From contig KZ538141.1 of NCBI GenBank assembly GCA_000934665.2, positions 1 through 64,000 of the forward strand: a stretch of DNA of 64,000 bases, in the 5' to 3' direction. Origin of the DNA: Catajapyx aquilonaris. Its lineage: Eukaryota. The position numbers and the translations under genes were made by a program. Positions 4,901 through 46,916 of the stretch are shown one piece after another; positions within the stretch are counted from its first letter, which is position 1; every line of letters starts with the position of its first letter. Under the pieces are notes generated by a model. That model saw only the letters and a list, made by a program, of their open reading frames with translations, searched no databases and was not told the DNA's origin.

Positions 4901-5937
4901 GCGAAATGACATAAATGACTCCATTAGTTCCCAGTGATGCAATGCGGGAGAAGCACGACACTAATTTGTTCGTAAACAAACAAAACTAGCAGCCATACTT
5001 CTATACCCCCATACCCCCTACCCTCCTCCCCTGCCTTTCCACAGTAAATTTATATACCCGCCGAAACAGATGATTGTGTATTTGCAGAGAGCAGCGGAGC
5101 CCATCGATTTTGCGCCAGACGTATTAAATTTAATGTGGGCCATATTATTATGCGGGGCAGTGTACATATGAAGCAGCAGAAAAAAAAATCAATGTTTGTA
5201 CGCTGGCATACAGTATACGGTATGTTATAACATGGTTGCGTCAGCAAGTACGAACATACGTTGTTTCAACATTTACCATTGTTGCCATCAGGGATCTGCC
5301 AGATTTCAACCTTCGGGACTTTGCTCTCAGTCAAATAACTCAGTTAATATTAAGGGATATCCTATTATGTATGATGTATATAATATAACTAGCTTACATA
5401 AATTTCAATATTCAAAATATACAGAGCATGTAAATTTCATTGTTCTTTGAATAGGCCTTCAATTATTGTTATTAATTAAATTGCACCTTGCACATTGAAA
5501 TTGTGCTTAATTTATTAGTGTCATATTTAAACGAAGCTGACGGTTGCTACTGTTCATCATCATGTAGACGGAAATACTGTAGACCAGGTATTTTTAGCCT
5601 GAGGTCTTTATTTAGCCTGGAAATTTGCTGACCTAAAACAGTGTTTTTGCAACAAAGCCCGAGTGAGCACTGTGATGTAGCCTGCTATGCATTAATAATT
5701 AAAGTGGTTTTTTTCGCCCCGTCATCTTTGTTCGTTGTTTAGTGAGAGTAACGTAATAGCTTAGGGGAATCTTGTCATGGCCTCTCCTGCCCATAGACAC
5801 AGATTAGCATGAGAAAGGAAGTGTATACAGGGTACAGTGTGGGCAAATTGTTATTTCAAAGTACAGAAACGCCAACCCAGTAGAAGCTAAGAATAGCACA
5901 AAGAGACTTCTGATGTAATTCCAAAAGCCAGGCTTAC

Positions 5938-6065
5938 CTGCTTGAATCCTCGATAAATGGTCTGAATTTCCTTCCTGGTGAACTTGGTGGTTTTGGCTAA
6001 CTTGTCCAACTCTTCAGGCCGATACCGGACCACGTTGATGCTGAGGTCATCGAAGTCGTCCTCAG
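5938..6065 (-). CDS. KChIP: KChIP-like Kv channel-interacting protein, first shared core exon (128 nt, phase 1 to 0)
   Basis: Reverse complement reads ttcag|CT GAG GAC...AAG CAG|gtaagc = EDDFDDLSINVVRYRPEELDKLAKTTKFTRKEIQTIYRGFKQ. This matches the KChIP N-terminal core pattern (RPExLxxLxxxTxFxxxExQxxYRGFK). Splice sites are canonical. Confidence 0.96.
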
Positions 6066-8007
6066 CTGAAAGTCACACATCATGAGTTAATTAACAAAGC
6101 GACTGAAACGACAGCCATGCTGCTAATTATTCAGAAACGCTGTCCCAAAAACATGGTTATCCTGCAGCTGCCCTTGCAATAAGATTTTCATGCGCGTCGT
6201 TTTAAAGGGAATGTGTCCCTCGACGCTACATTGTTGTGCCGTTTAAACGTTTAGCACTCTCATGAAATCCAGTGACGTAAACTTCAGCTTACAGAGAATG
6301 CTGCAGCTCCTTTAGATAAGAAGTTACAGGTAGTTTACAACTGGTTGCAAGGTATGACCCTCATTCGCTGCAAGGTGCATGCCTTGATGGGGAATGCCAC
6401 TGCAATGCATTTCAGGGAAATGGTCTCATTTCCTCGGGGCCAGCAGAAAAGGGGGTGCGAATTTCCATCCGTGCAGCTCATTTCTTGGATTAAGAGATCG
6501 ATAAATTTTCCGACGGAATAGCCTTCCAATAGGTCCCCCTGCTTTATGCCTTTTGCGCCATAGTTGCCAGCATCCGTCCGATTTCCCAAACGCCTGCAAT
6601 TTCGCGAGTTATCAAACGCTCTCTGTGTATTGTGAAGGGCCGCGTGTAATTGGCCACATGTAACGCTGGGTGGGGGGTCTGGAATTATCAGTGGTTGGCC
6701 GACCCCCTACAAAACCACTTCAATGAATAATCCGGTAATAATAAACGACTTAACAACATATTCTGCGCCTCTCCACACCCACACCCACAACATAGATTCC
6801 GCCAGCACAAAAGGCCCTTCGGCTGAACGGGAACATTGTCAAAGGGGGTGGAAACCCTGCCGAGTTCATAATTACGCATAGTTAGGTAATTCTGAGCCGA
6901 GGCAAGTACAATGCCGACAATGAAGTGGTTTAGTCTGGCGCAAACGGCCATTTACTGGGAGTTTAATCGGGGGTTTAAAAGAAATGGGATAGACGACGAC
7001 GACGTGCTGCTGATAACCGTTCAAAGTGCTCGTGATTAGCCTCCATTTTTTTGCCACCAACAAAGCGATCCAAAAGATTAGGACGAATCAGCTCATTTCG
7101 TCTACAGACTTATTACGACTAAGCAGGTGTAACATGCATGGGGGAAAAAATATTATTACGTTCACACTTACGTGAGATATATTACACTGGAGCAGCAGAC
7201 ACGATCAAGACGTGGGACTTACATTATACAGATTGCGTCTGGCTGTTACGTAACTGCACTTTGTAACGTCTAATCTAAACGCTTTTCGTCCAACATTTTA
7301 ACTGACCGTTAAACTGCAGTTTAGGTCATTTCCATCAGCAAGCAACTCTGAACTTGAAAAGTTTGTAGTCAATTGATATCCTGCGAGTTATGCTTTGACT
7401 GCTGTGCTTTGCGGGTTGCCGTGCACTTCCAGGATGAAAGGGCAACACTCGGTTGTTGCGTCACATTCTGTGGTCCCAGCTCCAATGGCCTTTGTCCCCA
7501 ACTTCAGCGGCCTATCTGCGAAAGTAGATCCACCCCTCCTACCCACTTGTCGTGGCGGAAACCCCCCCTCTTCTCTCGAGGCTGTCGTCGAAACAGGTGG
7601 CTGAATGGACTAGGGCCCTTGAAAGTGCAGATTAATGAGTGTAGATATTTCACGCCCGAGGATCAATGTGTCCCCGCTTTGAGGACCGGTGGAAGCCGAG
7701 GCCCTTGCTGACCCCCTCCATGGTCTCCCAATTGATCCCGGTTTCGCCATTGATCTCTCTACTCTCTACTGCCTCTTTCCAAAGGACCTGAGGTTCTCTC
7801 TTTCCGATATATGCTAATTGGAGTGCACCGAGAGTTTTTTTCCCCTCTTTCCCATCCAGTCTCTTTCTCTCTGCCTCTTTCCCTCCGCATTGCATCCCTG
7901 TAGAAATTTGGTAAACGCAGCGAAAGGACCCTAATTACACGGTGGGTCTAAACTCTCAAGTGCTCTATTCTAAGAGGGTAAACGCAATATCGGGATGGCC
8001 GCTCTCG

Positions 8008-38400: not shown

Positions 38401-41113
38401 TCACCTCTATAGTTCGCTAGTGCCGCTAGTTAATTAATCTGGCTGTGTTAACTTCAGCAGTTATTAACTGTATACACCTGCAGTTTGTGCCACCGGATTA
38501 TTTCCGGGACGTCTCCCCACTAAATAACAAACATTCCACAGCTGAAGGCATTCTTGTATACGCGACACTGGAACAGACGGGGGCGGCACCAGCAGTTGTC
38601 GGGGGACAAAAATGGGAGTCGGTCTTTTGCTCTTTATTCGTTCTTCTATTAGAAAATCGCATAACTCTGCAAGTCCAGCGGTGGACATATTGACAAGGCT
38701 CCAGTGAGAATGGGGTCACACAGCAGGCTTTTGTCTGGGTTGGAAGATAGATTAGAGCTGGTGGAGTGGGCGGGGGCACGCCTGTCACCCTGCTTATGAA
38801 AAAAAAAAGACAAAGAAATTCAGTCCCCTCCAAAAAAACTCAAAAGAGTAGGATTTGGAAAGGAAAGGGCCTTTGGTTATATATACACTCTCCTTGAAAA
38901 GATGCACGGGTGAATAGACCTGCAACGGTTTTGCCTTGATTGATTGAGACGTGTAAAAATCGACGTGTTTTTCCTGCAGATATCATTTCTCAAGCGCCTT
39001 GGCAGGATCGGTTTTTTGGCTTCTCGTCCGCTGCTGGCCCGTATATACATCGGCTTAAAAGGAAGCCCTGACGTGTATCATCAGGAAGGATGGGGATCCG
39101 GGTTGACACCGGATTCACCCGGGTAGCAAATATTGTTGCGCGTCAGACCCAGCGGTGAAAAGAGTATCACGTAACTCACGTCGTCATCTCTTCCGAAACA
39201 ATTTTGCCATTATTTCCGTCGATAACAACAGATCTATTATAGAAGCGGCTGTCATAGCTCGTTTCACGGAAGAAAATCATCTGTCTGTTTCTGAATTCCG
39301 GTCGCAGTTTCCGGAACTTGTTGGTCCACAAGGAACAATTAAAATGCAGGAAGGCCTGCGTTGGCAGTGGTCCTGATGCTGCGGCTAAAATTCATCGCGA
39401 AAGGAATGCTGCCATATCTCTTCCGGGGGGCCAGAATCCGGAGATGGCAGTCGGTTCTATATGTCTACAACACCGCCTTTTGGAGGCTGGGCTGCATGTG
39501 AGCATCAGCAGACTTGCCCCCCCTATATATGAAACTTCAGGCTGGATTTACCGGGCTCTGCTGGCTTGGTTATTCCCCAAAATTTCCTCCCCGTGGCGGA
39601 GTCAGGGTGAATAACAGGCCGGGTAATTAATTTTCACGCCTTCTGGACACCACCCCACGGACAGACTATACTCTACACCTCCCGGAGGCTGCGGTGTTAA
39701 AGAGGATATGGCCGGAGACGACTCTCTTCATTCGCAATGCAAGGGCAATGTGAATGTGCCACATTGCAAAACCATTGTGCAGAAGGAATCCGCCCAAAGT
39801 AAACTATGCTTAACCACACAAGAACGAATAATTGCAATGTCAGTATTTTCTGCTGTATGAATATTGCGATTTATGCACCTTTTTGAGAATCGTAAGATGA
39901 CCGAAAATAACTTCATTTGTTCAGCTTGAGAGTTACGGACCTTATCATCATTTTCCGGAGCTTCACTGTGCAGGTTGGCTAAACAAGATAGCCAGGTTAT
40001 ATTAATGGGGAGCCAGGTTGTCATGCACGTGTAGGAATCCGACACGAAAAGGGCCACCGGAAAAACGGCTGGTTTAGTGCCAACATTGTAGTAAAAGATA
40101 TCAGATTCTCGGGATGCCAGAGGCCAACGCTTTGATTAACTTGTCACGCGAGGAGGCCCAAACTCTCCCATCATAAGTTTTAACGCGTCACTATGATGGA
40201 TGTGAAACTGCGAATATTGCCTGGCCCGCCCACGTGTTTTGTGCACAGGGTGTTTCTGAATTTTTTCCTTAAAACGTGAAACATAGCTCCACTTCCAAGT
40301 CTTGCACAATCAGGGTTGATCTTGTAGAAAATAATGTACTGGAAGTGCACCAGTGTTATTATAAATAATCCCTTAGAGTGCGTCTTTCTTTGGGGGACAA
40401 TATCGTGCTGTATACAGGGAGGGCCGGAAGAAATTTCCAGGGAGGCATGTTCTCCGGACCGTAACGAGAGGCTGTGCTCCACTGGAGACTATCGGAGAAA
40501 AGGGAATGGTCTCTCCGAGTATACAGCCAGATTTATTTACTGCTCGGCCCTTCCATACAGCCAGCAGCAGGGCCAGAGAAATGCGCAGTTATCCTTGCCC
40601 GCAACCACTTGTATAAATCGCCGAAAAGTTGAAATGGTTCCGGCCACCACCACCGGCCTGTACTTGTCACGGGGACTCGACCTAGGGGGGCCATTTGTCC
40701 CTTTTGTGTATAGGAAGAGGGGGGGGGGGGGAAATATTGGCGACAATTCGGGCTGGAACCGACTCATTTCTCATTCCGTATTATTTGTGCTCGTACTTAC
40801 AAGAGGCGCCCAATTACGCATTGTTCATACAACCGGACCTTGGGTGTGTGACCTTGCACAAATGGGCGTGATTTGCTTATCCCGTTGAGTGCATTGGTCT
40901 GTCAAATGGTCCGCGTGTCACCTGCTTGCTCGAATTAAAATGCATCTTCCTGCTCCTCCCCCGCCCCTCCCACCTTTTCCCACCTATCTCTGCTCAACAC
41001 AGTTGTCATTGTGTAGTGAGAGTGCAAGTGCAATAGATGCAATGACCCCAGTGCCTAGTGACAACAGGTGGGGGTTCTTTAGTTTCATTGGTTTCACCAA
41101 CAGTGCATCCGGG

Positions 41114-41236
41114 ATGGATGAAGCAGCCTCATCTTCGTCCATCGAGACCACGATAGACACAAAGCCTGTGTCTCAGCTGAGCTACAAGGAGATGCAGATC
41201 GTGGCCATATCTATGCACCTGCCAGGAAATCTCAAG
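41114..41236 (+). CDS. Sina/Siah-domain gene, exon 1 (SAP-like motif, first half); alternative in-frame ATG at 41042
   Basis: gggATGG start context; MDEAASSSSIETTIDTKPVSQLSYKEMQIVAISMHLPGNLK|gtcgga, phase 0. LSYKEMQxxAxxxxLPGNLK resembles SAP/NuSAP-type N-terminal motifs and continues into exon 2. Confidence 0.7.
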
Positions 41237-42581
41237 GTCGGATCTATTTCTTTGCCTTATTTTTTTTATTTTTTTGAACCGGGCCATTTGTTTCGAGAGC
41301 CCTGTTTTGGTGATTAGCAGCAGGCGATGGCGGGTAGGGGGTGTTTGGATAGGATTATTGTAATGAGGAAAAGGGTTTCCACGTCGAGGATTTTAGGCTG
41401 ATCACCGGGTCTCAATCATCAGCCGATTTGCCTCGTTAGCACCAAGAACCTTGCTCGTTTATCATCCCATCCCGCGCAGACGCATTCACACTATTGCTAA
41501 ATAACCAAAAATACACGGCATTATTCAAATTCTCACAAATAATATCGATCGAATGTCAAATTGAGATGTCACCACAACCAGCCGGTATTGCGCAATTTAT
41601 CTCTGGCAAGAAATATCCTGAAAATATCTGGCTGGCTGCATGATGATCCCCATAAGTGGATTGCAATCAAATTATAATTTTATGCTGCATGCCTGAATTT
41701 GGTGGCCGCCGTTCTATTTTTGGTTCCCGCCAACGTGTAAACATTGGCGGTGCATGACGCATCTTGTGACATATTTTACATCAAGGGACAATAAAGGGGA
41801 TCTTTTCATACTGAGGGAGCAGGGTATCAATGGGGAATTGTTCGTCTAATCAGATATTTGACGGTATGATTTCTGTTGTGGTCCTGTTGCGCCTGCTCTT
41901 TTCCATGTGCAGGTTAAACTGATTTATTATTATTATTATAATAATTAGCACACAAATTATTACACATTTCATTATCAGTGCAATAAAACGAACATGTGGT
42001 CTGTGCTACTGATTAAGTGGTATTTTCCGCTCGTTAGAATTTACGTGGGCAGTCATAATCAGACTGATTTTATAGCTGCAGTACGCACATTTCTTCGACG
42101 GTGCAATAAAGAGTTTTATACGACGAATGCATCGCTACAGACGGGACATAAAGATATCTTGAGCTGCGGTGTCACATGAAATTATGATCATATTTATCTC
42201 GCTTTCGCCATGAACTATCGACGATTAATATTATTGATGTTATGTTATTCGATTTGAAGACAGCTCAATTTCGATAATGTGAGGATAATAATGAGAGTCT
42301 GGCCATTTGACATGTTGCAATTTTTAAGGTGGCCATATTTTATCATAATAGCAAACATTGTGCCCTTCAAGTGTCACCCGTTGGGTACTTAGCCCGTACT
42401 GATAGAGCACACGAGACAAAACAGCTCATGTTTCGCCCTGGATGGTCAGGTTTCATTCGTGGCATAAAACTGCTTGACCGTTGACCCTCCTCTCTATGGT
42501 CCGGTACTTGTCAAGTGCGCATGTGTCCTTATGCTTTGTGCTTAATTGTGACAGCATGTGTTTCTATTTATGGTGTTGCAG

Positions 42582-42737
42582 CAACAGGCTCTGGCGGACC
42601 TGATCGAGGCCCGTCGTCGCGGGGACGAGAGTCAGGTGGCAACGGTGCTCAAGTATTACAGGGAAGAGAGGGCCAAGAGGAAGGAGGAGGTCGACGCCAC
42701 CATGGGGAAGTCAGGGAGGAAAAAGAGTGGGCCAAAG
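42582..42737 (+). CDS. Sina/Siah-domain gene, exon 2 (end of SAP-like helix, basic NLS-like stretch)
   Basis: gttgcag|CAA CAG GCT...CCA AAG|gtgagt = QQALADLIEARRRGDESQVATVLKYYREERAKRKEEVDATMGKSGRKKSGPK; 156 nt, phase 0-0. Confidence 0.88.
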
Positions 42738-42798
42738 GTGAGTACTGCTGCTGGAGTTGTGTCATAACCGGGTGGTATCTCTCTGGAATGTTTTCCAG

Positions 42799-43701
42799 AG
42801 GGCCACTAGTGGCAGCAGCGTGTCAGCACCTCGTCGGAAGCACCGACGGCAGGTAGAGTACGACATGACCCCGGACATTGCGCAGAACCTGAGCTTCCTC
42901 CAACAGACGGCCCAGCAGCATCAGGTCGACGCTACACCTGAGCTGCAGGTGCCACCTCCGCCGATGCCTCTTCAGGAGCCGCAGCAAACGTTCGAGCAGC
43001 TTCAGCAGCAACTTAGGTACCAGTACGACCAGATGAACCACGGGTACCAGTTTGATGCCATGTACCCGTACATGCCTCCGTCGCCTGCCCCAACCCAGCA
43101 GACATACCAAGACCCGTCGCCGCCCACTTCGGGTCCGGTCCAGTACGAGTACCAACAGGGTCAGCCGTTTTACCCGATGCCCGAACCAGCCTACATCACC
43201 CCTGATCTCAACTCCATCCAGCAGCAGTGCTCTCCAGCCCCTGTGGACTCCGGGTTCGGGTCGCCATCCGTGACCGACCCGGAAGAGGAGATGATGAGAC
43301 GCCTGTCGCTGGAGGTACGACCACCACCACCAGCCTCCTCCCTGCAGTACCTGTACACCCTGATGCCGATACAGAGCGCCTTCCCTATCCCGGCACTGAC
43401 CACATCGACGTACTCGCTGCACGGGAGCATCACCAGCGTGATTCCGATGCAGCCGTGCAACCACCAGCAGCAGCCAGCAGCACACAGCAGCCATCTTCCA
43501 GCAGCACACAGCCTTCTGCCAGCCGCACTCCCTCCTCCGCCTCAGATCCTGCAGCCAGAGTACATCCCCAGCTTCCAGTGGTCCGGCAACTTCAGTGAGA
43601 ACCGCCAGCAGCAGGAAGGATACATCCCGGATGACATACAGGGGATGGACCAGCTGCCGGTCGACGACGCCACGCTGGCTGCATGGTACGAGGAGAACAA
43701 G
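42799..43701 (+). CDS. Sina/Siah-domain gene, exon 3 (301-codon Pro/Gln/Tyr-rich low-complexity region)
   Basis: ttttccag|AGG GCC...AAC AAG|gtgcgt after a 61-nt intron. Part of the longest ORF in the window (42757-43737), with strong G/C bias at third codon positions. Confidence 0.9.
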
Positions 43702-43763
43702 GTGCGTGTTTCTGTGCGGGATTTAGCGAGTGTCTGATGTGCATTGTTTGGTTATTGCTCCAG

Positions 43764-43934
43764 GACCTGCTGCAGACACCTGAGGATCCGTCTGATGAGC
43801 GCAGTGGCACCACGGAGGAGGCTCCTCAGGTGGTCGAATCGGTGGCGCCACCGCCCCCCACGTGCCCGTGCCCAATGTCGATATGCGGCTGGATGGGCTA
43901 CTCCAACTCGGAGCTGCTGGGCCATCTGTCCGAG
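43764..43934 (+). CDS. Sina/Siah-domain gene, exon 4 (Siah-type zinc finger)
   Basis: ttgctccag|GAC CTG...TCC GAG|gtgagc after a 62-nt intron. CPCPMSICGWMGYSNSELLGHLSE(AH) parallels the SIAH finger [25 protein letters not shown]. Confidence 0.9.
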
Positions 43935-44055
43935 GTGAGCTGAACCCACTTGTTAGTTCCGACGCTGCCGACGCCTCCGACGCCACTGTTATATCGATCG
44001 GACGGCGCCAGGTTTAACTGGACCCGGCAATTTCGCATGATTTTGGTTGTTGCAG

Positions 44056-44217
44056 GCCCATGTGGACCAACTGGGCAACAGGAACCGACGCTGCAAGATC
44101 ATAGACCTGCACTACCTCAGGGCCCACCAGCAGCTGGAGTACCTGCACTATTCCGCAGACAACATCTTCCTGCTGGTGCTGCGTTGTCACGGAAATCTCT
44201 TTTACACCACCTTGCAG
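44056..44217 (+). CDS. Sina/Siah-domain gene, exon 5 (substrate-binding TRAF-like domain, first part)
   Basis: ttgttgcag|GCC CAT...TTG CAG|gtacag = AHVDQLGNRNRRCKIIDLHYLRAHQQLEYLHYSADNIFLLVLRCHGNLFYTTLQ. FLLVL and FYTTLQ correspond to Siah FMLVL and FFAIVQ. Confidence 0.88.
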
Positions 44218-44826
44218 GTACAGGAGCGGATTCGTTCTGAGAGTGACTGTCAAAAGCGAATCACCTTTAGCCGTTACGTTCCAGCAGTTGAGGTCTTATC
44301 AAAATAATCGCCGCTCATAATTATTATGTTAATCTCGGAGAGCCCATTTGCAAAGCCTGAAGTATACTTAAGAATTATGCAGCCACTCAGCGTTAGCTAA
44401 TGCTTTTGATAGCCTCTAAAAGTAACGGTTCAGTGCTTCATGAAAAGAAACTTGATGCCAAAAAGCTGCTGTTAACTGCACTGGGCAATGGGGAATTATC
44501 AATTTTGCCATCCATGAAAGGCGACAGGTTTTTTGACAAAAGGTGACAATGAGCATTCTTTAACAAATCAAAAAGTGGCACCATTCTGGTGCATTACAGT
44601 GAGATTTTTTTTTTGCCATGACATTTGGACCTCCCAACCTCATTTCGAAGTCGGTCTGAAAATGAGCAATAACAGACCACGGTTGGCAAATTACCCACCA
44701 ATGCAGCTCTGATTAGTGTGGATGATGGCTTCATAAAACATGGAGGAATGATTTGCCAAATGATAACGAGGCGCGGTTCAACAGTGATAACACGGTCAAT
44801 GTCTCTTTTATTTTCCATGATGACAG

Positions 44827-45054
44827 TACGTGACGAACAAGGATGAAGGCGGCAATAGGATCCAGTACGAGGGTCAGCTGACCATGCACGGCATGAACAA
44901 CCGGCTGAGCTCGTGGCGTGGACCTTTGGAGTACTACTCGATGCCCCTTCCGGTCATCTGGGAGGCCAAGAACTGCCTGGTGGTGGACGCAGCCGCCATC
45001 GGCGCCTGCGTCGGAGCCAGCTTCCGGCTCGACGTCGACGTCTCTCCCATGTAG
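44827..45054 (+). CDS. Sina/Siah-domain gene, terminal coding exon
   Basis: gatgacag|TAC GTG...ATG TAG = YVTNKDEGGNRIQYEGQLTMHGMNNRLSSWRGPLEYYSMPLPVIWEAKNCLVVDAAAIGACVGASFRLDVDVSPM*. Aligns by eye with the Siah C-terminus (RRLTWEATP...DCLVFD...LGINVTIS). Confidence 0.9.
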   Translation, partial: YVTNKDEGGNRIQYEGQLTMHGMNNRLSSWRGPLEYYSMPLPVIWEAKNCLVVDAAAIGACVGASFRLDVDVSPM

Positions 45055-45347
45055 TTAAGCTAAGTGCCTTTGAAATGTATTTATTCGGTGCCAAAAGTTG
45101 TGTTCAGCAATAGATCGCTTGTGTTCCAATCATTTTTATACGGCCGATATTGTTTTTTTGTTTGCTCAAAGATAAGGATCTTTTCCAAAAAAAAAGGGCC
45201 ACTTTCAGACGGTTGTGTACCTCTTTTTTCCGTTTCCATGTTATTATTGGCGTGTTAAGGAATCAAAACGCCACTCAGTAATTATTCAGATTGTTCAGAA
45301 ATGTGTTCAGTATTATCACGTTGTACCACAATGTGCCTTTGAGGATT

Positions 45348-45353
45348 AATAAA
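45348..45353 (+). terminator. Probable polyadenylation signal of the Sina-like gene
   Basis: AATAAA ~295 nt after the stop codon. Confidence 0.45.
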
Positions 45354-46916
45354 GAGCTATTAATCAAACATATTCTACTTCCTCTCATAGGGTCTATCGA
45401 TAGGTTGACCCCTTCTTCAGGGACTGGCCTTACTATATATGGCGCATTATGGATTAAAGCCTGCATAAAATTTACGTAGCATAAATATGCGTGCCTAGAG
45501 AACTCAAGTAGCGTTTTATCTTGGCCTGAAGTCACGTGCAGTCTATAGTCTACTATAGTTGGGATGGTCTTAAACGCACTGTTGTGCTCAGTTCCGCAGC
45601 ACTAATCTGGCTTAGGAAGTTTTGGCGATTAGTCCCGTCCGTTATTTTGATAATCACACGTTTGTTGAGCCAGCCCAGATTAATTACCTGCAATTTGCTG
45701 CTGTTGTTTTTTCCTCTCATAAGATGTTGCGTGCAGGTGTTGCACACACTCAACCTATTTTCACTCAAGTGGCTCGCATAAATTTGCAAAAATCTCTGTG
45801 GTTTATTTTTCATGCAAATGGTCATCCCAAGTCGGATGCTTATGCGGACATTAGCCTATGCCATTACCGGCTGGTCATTTTTTTTGTGGCAAATATATTC
45901 AGCTGGCATCCCCAGGCCATTTCTGAAGTTAGTTGTCCGAAAAGGAAGGCTTATGAAAAGCAGAGGGGACAGTATAAAGCGGACTAGTGTGTGTGTGATG
46001 CGCATAATGAGAGTTGGGGTTGCAATGGGGTTGAGTTGCGCGCGTGTTTGCGGCTTTTTGGCCAAGCATTTTGTTTAATTGCGCGTTGATTGAAACCTCT
46101 GGTACATCGCCGGCGCGGAATCCAATTGAATCATCGTTTGTTTTAACACGCTGTAATGACATCAATAGGCCAAAAATAATTTTAAAAAGATTGGTCATAT
46201 GGCTGGGTACACTGCTGCATTGCCGAACTTTTTAATGATGTTGCGAACTTTTTTGCACGTTTGGATTATTATGCGCGCTGGCTTCCCCGACACGTGTTAC
46301 GCGATGGGCTACTGTAGTTGAACCCTTTTTGTGACGTTTTTTTGGGTCCTCTGATGCAATCACATTTTGACGCGTGTTTCACGGTTAGGAGATACCGCAT
46401 TACTGCAGTTGTACTATTTCGATGATGTTACGAACTTTGACACTCGTTTCGGGGAATAGCGGTCCTGTAATAGAGTGGAGCCTTTTTAATAAAATCCCTG
46501 TATCTTGTGTAAGTGAAGACATGTTGTGTTAAGTGACAGCAGGTGTTGTTGGGCAATTTGCACGTAGGTGGGTTTGATGGCGGGGAAAAAGAGGCGTGCT
46601 TATCCGGGGCTTATTATCGAGCTGCCTTTGGTTCCGGAGTTAATCCCGGGGCACTGCAGCACCATGATGTTTGATGGTCCGTGAACCCGATAAAACCGAA
46701 ACTGTTTCCGACTGCTCATTACGTGTATTGCGTATATATACACCGAAAGGAAACACTCCTGCGACATGCCCTTTAAATGATGCAGTCATCCGCAGGGCAT
46801 CAAACATGCACCAACTTTGATCGGTGAAGTTGACTGAAACCGAGCATAACTTATGCTCCTCAGACTCCGGAGTGCACCTGTCTGGGACAGACTGATTAAG
46901 TTGAAGTGTACGGTAC

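Follow-up and report, generated by a model that had tools for sequence, protein, structure and literature searches.

A spliced, RING-less gene of Catajapyx aquilonaris encoding a protein with a candidate second Sina/Siah zinc finger

A stretch of 64,000 nucleotides of Catajapyx aquilonaris DNA (contig KZ538141.1 of assembly GCA_000934665.2, positions 1 to 64,000 of the forward strand, referred to here as the window) contained a six-exon gene at positions 41114-45054 of the plus strand. The gene is a genuine, expressed and spliced animal gene. Its predicted protein of 580 amino acids contained neither a RING nor a first Sina zinc finger, and it carried a single zinc-finger-like motif near its C-terminal end, for which the sole database leads, all sub-threshold, pointed to the second zinc finger of the Sina/Siah family. 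Membership of the Sina family is not established. The favoured reading, with a probability of roughly 0.55, is that the protein is a lineage-restricted, probably nuclear, non-catalytic adaptor or decoy that was derived from Sina and is analogous to vertebrate SIAH3.

Gene structure and transcript support

The exon borders were set by script on the plus strand. The features of the gene are listed below by position in the window; X5 is a sequencing run described after the list.

40988-41113, plus strand: 5' region with transcript support; X5 contig 4 is unbroken over 40988-41234
41114-41236, plus strand: exon 1, residues 1-41; serine-rich start, then hydrophobic-helical
42582-42737, plus strand: exon 2, residues 42-93; two predicted helices and the basic clusters RRR, KRK and RKK, in a pattern like that of a bipartite nuclear localisation signal (NLS)
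42799-43701, plus strand: exon 3, residues 94-394; RRKHRR at the start, then an acidic low-complexity linker rich in Pro, Gln and Ser
43764-43934, plus strand: exon 4, residues 395-451; end of the linker and most of the zinc-finger-like motif, with C428 at 43863
44056-44217, plus strand: exon 5, residues 452-505; C-terminal globular region, first half
44827-45054, plus strand: exon 6, residues 506-580, stop codon included; C-terminal region, second half
43863-44061, plus strand: finger resembling the second Sina zinc finger, C428-x6-C435-x12-H448-x4-H453, interrupted by intron 4 (43935-44055)
45055-45353, plus strand: 3' untranslated region (UTR), covered by transcript contigs to at least about 45200, with AATAAA at 45348-45353

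The six exons joined into one open reading frame (ORF) of 580 codons with 0 internal stops. All five introns were bordered by GT..AG, and all were in phase 0, since each of the six exon lengths was divisible by 3. The GC content at third codon positions (GC3) of the coding sequence was 0.76 overall and 0.66-0.85 per exon; the introns had a GC content of 0.41-0.55 and the window of 0.45. A preliminary description of this DNA, made from the letters alone, had given six phase-0 exons joining without stops into about 580 amino acids. This gene model was borne out, and the motif strings quoted in that description (RAKRK, GRKKSGPK, PRRKHRR and LSYKEMQ...DLIEA) were all found in the exon translations.

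Five sequencing runs of one coded organism were listed: four DNA runs, probably from the source sample, and X5, which came from a separate sample and study and contained 0.38 of the sampled words. Over positions 40300-45900, the X5 contigs were confined to exons and UTRs. They showed all five predicted joints (5/5), including the splice from exon 1 to exon 2 that the preliminary description had proposed to check on RNA, with skips of 1345, 61, 62, 121 and 609 bases, all GT..AG. Three joints were bridged by long sides, namely the exon 1/2 joint (41234/42580 in X5) with a side of 118 letters and the two joints of exon 4 with sides of 157 and 161 letters, while the joints over introns 2 and 5 had shorter sides of 29 and 28 letters, below the 31-letter rule, and were marked as not known in between. 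In the DNA run X1, the unspliced region lay within a single 20-kb contig. X5 is most simply a complementary DNA (cDNA) library because spliced copies were present; a processed DNA copy in a different individual is a formal alternative.

The 5'-most X5 contig began at 40988, with no loose end there. An in-frame ATG at 41042 lay inside the transcript-covered 5' region, and its use would add 24 residues (604 amino acids), so that the start codon is ambiguous between 580 and 604 amino acids. A two-codon, out-of-frame upstream ORF (ATG CAA TGA) beginning with the ATG at 41037 occupied 41037-41045 and overlapped the ATG at 41042. The nearest upstream in-frame stop was at 40886, 5' of the start of the X5 contig, and the frame was open from 40889 to the ATG. 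At the 3' end, X5 contig 8 spanned 44895-45200.

Other observations were made around the gene. A run of about 13 G was present at 40714-40727, 270 bases 5' of the first transcript-supported base; one X1 contig had an extra G at 40718 and other X1 contigs broke at the run, which probably reflects an uncertainty of sequencing or of assembly length. Antisense to exon 3, a stop-free frame of 299 amino acids was found at 42823-43722 on the minus strand; neither splicing nor transcripts support it separately, and the GT..AG joints place the gene on the plus strand. The frame is apparently a side effect of GC-rich codon usage in exon 3. Scans of the 64-kb window for tRNAs and for Rfam families each returned 0 matches.

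Zinc finger, RING and C-terminal region

The finger was formed by CPCPMSICGWMGYSNSELLGHLSE at the end of exon 4, followed across the exon 4/5 joint by AH from exon 5, and had the form C-x6-C-x12-H-x4-H at residues 428-453. It was one residue longer than the second SIAH-type zinc finger, C-x6-C-x11-H-x4-H. A search of exon 4 against 24,736 Pfam models returned Sina_ZnF as the single lead, in which exon residues 32-56 were aligned to positions 38-61 in a profile of 77, within the half that describes the second finger. A phmmer search of exon 4 against the PDB sequences (E≤10) returned SIAH1, SIAH1A or SIAH2 in 10 of the 11 matches, and exon 4 and the SIAH chains were aligned on CPCP..C.W.G and the first His (HL), Cys to Cys and His to His. 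The ten SIAH chains count as one lead because they represent one family. When the protein was shuffled 200,000 times, the SIAH-shared columns C.C....C.W.G turned up 0 times and the generic pattern C-x6-C-x10-13-H-x4-H 80 times, and these figures are rough only, as the motif was picked post hoc. From the finger to the C-terminus there were 131-134 residues; the corresponding distance in the SIAH chains, which are 192 and 190 residues long, was 133-137. The single C-x6-C...H-x4-H finger of the preliminary description was therefore present, and its identity as a Sina/Siah finger is suggested by sub-threshold Pfam and PDB leads only.

The protein contained nine Cys residues (237, 313, 428, 430, 435, 464, 495, 555 and 566), of which 7 were in the last 153 residues. 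Since only C237 and C313 precede residue 428, the ORF contains no RING and no first Sina finger. No Cys/His cluster that could form a first SIAH-type finger was present upstream of C428, and no Pfam RING model matched any of the six exons. A RING pattern and a half-RING pattern gave 0 matches in the six frames of the 64-kb window, a crude screen that a RING split by an intron would escape. On all of these counts the earlier statement that a RING and a first zinc finger are missing was confirmed. Without them, E2 recruitment by the Sina mechanism is impossible. The RING and the two fingers of Sina proteins directly adjoin one another, according to the excerpts available of PMC5547486, and here the finger was preceded by about 425 unrelated residues. 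An unseen RING exon is unlikely.

The C-terminal region behind the finger was encoded by exons 5 and 6. The strings F-x-L-V-L, R-L-x(1,2)-W and C-L-V-x-D were present in these exons, and we take them, unconfirmed, to be the best-conserved motifs of the Siah domain; their order is presumably the same as in human SIAH1 and their spacing within 0-2 residues of it. The protein contained no PxAxVxP or AxVxP string. A two-chain complex prediction of exon 5 with exon 6 yielded no verdict, at a score of 0.00. The preliminary description had placed a Siah substrate-binding domain here. It is a putative domain, favoured by its length, by the Siah-like distance of the finger from the C-terminus and by the presumed motifs, and no per-exon test of exons 5 and 6 gave a Sina or SIAH match.

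Several results weigh against the reading as a Sina-derived protein. The Sina_ZnF lead on exon 4 was sub-threshold, with an E-value of 0.14 and 13 bits against a cut-off of 32 bits, and the SIAH matches of the same exon were likewise sub-threshold (E 0.39-0.92). When exons 5 and 6 were each searched alone, no Sina model was found in Pfam at E≤10 and no SIAH chain in the PDB search. The AlphaFold2 model of exon 6 alone consisted mostly of strands with one short helix and was unreliable, with a predicted local distance difference test (pLDDT) score of 48, and a Foldseek comparison of this model with the PDB gave nothing at E≤0.001 and 24 weak rows that contained no SIAH or TRAF chain. A phmmer search of exon 6 against 1.84 billion representative proteins returned no Sina-family protein and no orthologue; as relatives failed to turn up, conservation and purifying selection lend the reading no support. 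For the transcripts, no library kind is recorded for X5, and X5 does not fix the 5' end.

The sensitive full phmmer scan covered exon 6, and exons 3 and 4 were covered by a word-limited search. The word-index search of longer proteins produced 31 candidates for exon 6, 6402 for exon 3 and 8 for exon 4 (E≤10), and in each case 0 were scored. In the ESM Atlas, exon 6 had no usable match and exon 5 matched only unnamed clusters at 0.82. The check for orthologues of the same architecture that the preliminary description had proposed thus yielded none in the collections searched. As far as the searched collections show, the gene appears to be lineage-restricted or very fast-evolving.

Nine phmmer matches of exon 6 were rejected as spurious. 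They were repeat proteins of 1617-7088 amino acids in which single stretches reached about 7 bits or less; the summed repeat scores, with E-values down to 1.9e-23, were misleading, as the repeat G-C-x-G...V-x-V-x-V-x-P was present in up to 24 copies. The final 30 residues encoded by exon 6 (…GACVGASFRLDVDVSP) were faintly like the repeat G-C-x-G-x-x-F-x-V-x-V-x-V-x-P of these giant proteins. One metagenome locus, the only locus from 223 pattern matches with exon 6, was also rejected, since its 14-residue match lay in AT-rich, non-coding-looking DNA and was attributed to chance.

N-terminal region, linker and neighbouring gene

The first helix of a putative helix-turn-helix was located at L22-K41 (41177-41236) in exon 1, and the string LSYKEMQ...DLIEA crossed the exon 1/2 joint. 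AlphaFold2, run on exon 2 alone as a single sequence, predicted helices at exon residues 2-13 and 16-40, with a pLDDT of 84-93 across the first 30 residues. Residues 46-115 contained 20 Lys and Arg, with clusters at 52, 73, 87 and 105 whose spacing was like that of a bipartite NLS. The basic clusters named in the preliminary description were present in the exon translations, and from their pattern they may act as nuclear localisation signals.

The SAP motif is a two-helix motif of about 35 residues, with a helix-turn-helix string beside basic residues, and the preliminary description had seen a SAP-like N-terminus in this protein. Exons 1 and 2, each searched alone, did not match a SAP model in Pfam at E≤10. 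The PDB search returned no SAP-containing chain; exon 1 had no match and exon 2 matched only HEAT-like repeat chains at E>1. These tests of exon 1 and exon 2 are weak because intron 1 splits the motif. With no SAP model, no SAP chain and only helices in the AlphaFold2 prediction of exon 2, the SAP-like N-terminus was left without support. What the predictions and the composition show is a helical, basic N-terminus and no more. SAF-A/B, Acinus and PIAS are types of SAP-domain protein that also have a short helix, a Gly-containing turn and a helix near basic residues; unlike them, the present protein had no SAP model or structure match, a different spacing and an extra third long helix.

Residues 94-420 contained 15% Pro, 13% Gln and 9% Ser, and residues 116-420 were acidic, with 35 Asp and Glu against 7 Lys and Arg. 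No Pfam family was found in exon 3. The Pro/Gln-rich linker of about 300 amino acids given in the preliminary description was thus upheld by composition, and the acidic Pro/Gln/Ser-rich linker of about 310 residues is very likely disordered. A 21-nucleotide unit was repeated 2.4 times at 43478-43528 in exon 3 and coded for repeated ...PAAHS..., a possible trace of slippage that affected the linker recently.

On the minus strand, the window also contained a gene resembling Kv-channel-interacting proteins (KChIP) and neuronal calcium sensors, with exons at 5890-6072 and 1366-1431. The exon at 5890-6072 matched calsenilin (E 5.4e-9) and KChIP2 (E 1.1e-8) in the PDB. The Sina-like gene lay 35 kb to the right of the KChIP-like exons on the opposite strand, and because of this placement it may sit upstream of the KChIP-like gene or inside a large intron of it.

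Candidate roles, alternatives and significance

The favoured reading divides the protein into three parts. At the N-terminus, about 110 helical residues with three or four basic clusters would direct the protein to the nucleus; an acidic linker of about 310 residues rich in Pro, Gln and Ser would follow; and the C-terminal module of about 153 residues would be a strongly diverged second Sina/Siah finger together with the TRAF-like substrate-binding and dimerisation domain. Sina ancestry of exons 5 and 6, the nuclear location and everything said of partners are what we infer from these parts. The partner of the C-terminal module would be either a protein with a degron or canonical Sina, the latter contacted at the dimer interface, and the Catajapyx protein would then act as an adaptor, a decoy or a dominant-negative, as has been proposed for vertebrate SIAH3. 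A non-catalytic mode is most likely because the RING and the first finger are missing. The preliminary description had proposed a nuclear, nucleic-acid- or chromatin-tethered substrate adaptor or a dominant-negative Siah; of this, the RING-less state, the one finger and the basic clusters stood, the SAP tether was unsupported and the Siah domain stayed putative.

SIAH3 was compared by its published description, of which excerpts were available. In these excerpts SIAH3 lacks a functional RING, retains a single Sina zinc finger out of two and starts with an N-terminal sequence unique in the family, behind which lie the substrate-binding and dimer regions; it is fast-evolving, is proposed to inhibit SIAH1/2 non-catalytically through the dimer region, occurs in jawed vertebrates only and has a Sina identity of 45% overall and 60% in the substrate-binding site (PMC5547486). 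It has also been tied to mitochondrial metabolism, in the excerpted text of a second paper (PMC11578079). The present protein was alike in outline, with a finger of the second type, a C-terminal domain and no RING. It differed in that SIAH3, as so described, is readily alignable with Sina whereas the present protein was not detectably alignable beyond the finger, in its helical-basic and Pro/Gln-rich front of about 425 residues with no detectable relatives, and in its NLS-like clusters, in contrast to the mitochondrial link of SIAH3 (PMC11578079).

Canonical Sina, SIAH1 and SIAH2 shared with it the second finger, C-x6-C...H-x4-H with CPCP..C.W.G, and a similar length from finger to C-terminus. 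Unlike these proteins, it had no RING, no first finger and a long N-terminal extension, and the Sina TRAF-like model did not pick up its exons 5 and 6. According to the excerpts of PMC5547486, there is one sina gene in invertebrates, and for that reason the present gene would be an extra, aberrant Sina copy. Among plant SINA-like proteins, Arabidopsis SINA2 also has no canonical RING, and, in the part of the source available, ligase activity in vitro is reported for it (PMC6048857); the likeness to these proteins is the missing canonical RING and the difference, by description, that they are plant proteins. Because SINA2 keeps ligase activity in vitro, the absence of a RING alone is no proof of inactivity (PMC6048857, as excerpted). 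RING-less Sina relatives are already known, and what is unusual here is the front half. The open-access literature searched contained no description of a combined SAP and Sina architecture or of a RING-less invertebrate Sina.

The gene could instead encode an orphan nuclear low-complexity protein, for example a transcriptional co-regulator acting through its acidic Gln/Pro-rich region, in which the C-terminal Cys/His domain is unrelated to Sina and the likeness in CPCP..C.W.G arose by convergence or chance. Such a protein would explain why no Sina model or SIAH chain matched significantly and no homologue was found, and NLS-like clusters followed by an acidic Pro/Gln-rich region of about 310 residues would suit it. 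It is nevertheless unlikely, given that the sole leads from two independent libraries agree on the same finger and the same family, that the distance from finger to C-terminus is typical of Siah and that the shared columns appeared in none of the 200,000 shuffles; the collinear order of the presumed Siah motifs in exons 5 and 6 would also speak against it. The version of the preliminary description, in which a SAP domain would anchor a Siah-type substrate-binding domain on DNA, RNA or chromatin, is distinctly unlikely. The string of helix, Pro-Gly turn and helix across the exon 1/2 joint has a hydrophobic spacing reminiscent of SAP, its second helix was predicted at a pLDDT of 84-93 and the basic clusters adjoin it; set against this are the missing Pfam SAP match for exons 1 and 2, a PDB search without any SAP-containing chain, Gly-to-Lys and Gly-to-Leu spacings that are one or two residues off what we take to be the SAP consensus, a third helix of 25 residues that is foreign to a plain SAP motif and the lack of orthologues by which conservation could be judged.

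A further alternative is a Sina paralogue, young or in decay, whose transcript is made and spliced while no protein function is maintained. The extreme divergence, the failure to find relatives and the loss of the RING and first finger would fit, but a frame of 580 codons open through six phase-0 exons, a GC3 strongly raised in all exons and the retention of four of the four putative zinc ligands make it very unlikely. For a canonical-type E3 with its RING and first finger on unseen upstream exons, it can be said that no stop interrupts the frame between 40889 and the ATG and that the X5 contig merely begins at 40988, with the 5' end not fixed. RING-like matches were absent, however, from all frames of the upstream 41 kb and of the rest of the window, the dinucleotide preceding 40988 is not AG and no loose X5 end occurred there, and the contiguous RING and fingers of Sina (PMC5547486, as excerpted) contrast with the roughly 425 unrelated residues before finger 2 here, so that hidden RING exons are extremely unlikely. 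A bolder form of the Sina-derived adaptor or decoy is a long shot. In it, an invertebrate lineage would independently have made its own 'SIAH3', a nuclear pseudo-ligase with the second finger and the substrate-binding and dimer domain, joined by a disordered acidic linker to a helical head that binds chromatin or nucleic acid; it would dock or sequester Sina or its substrates on chromatin and would have diverged beyond the reach of sequence search.

At present, the family assignment of the protein consists of sub-threshold signals, no relatives are known and its function is proposed from its parts. If the tail is a Sina domain, the gene would be a second independent RING-less, single-finger Sina derivative beside vertebrate SIAH3, with a different and probably nuclear front. 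It would be a case of a family member that has drifted beyond the reach of sequence search with its zinc ligands retained. RING-less pseudo-ligases may naturally inhibit a ligase that gates RAS signalling, or serve it as adaptors, and an invertebrate case would be genetically testable.

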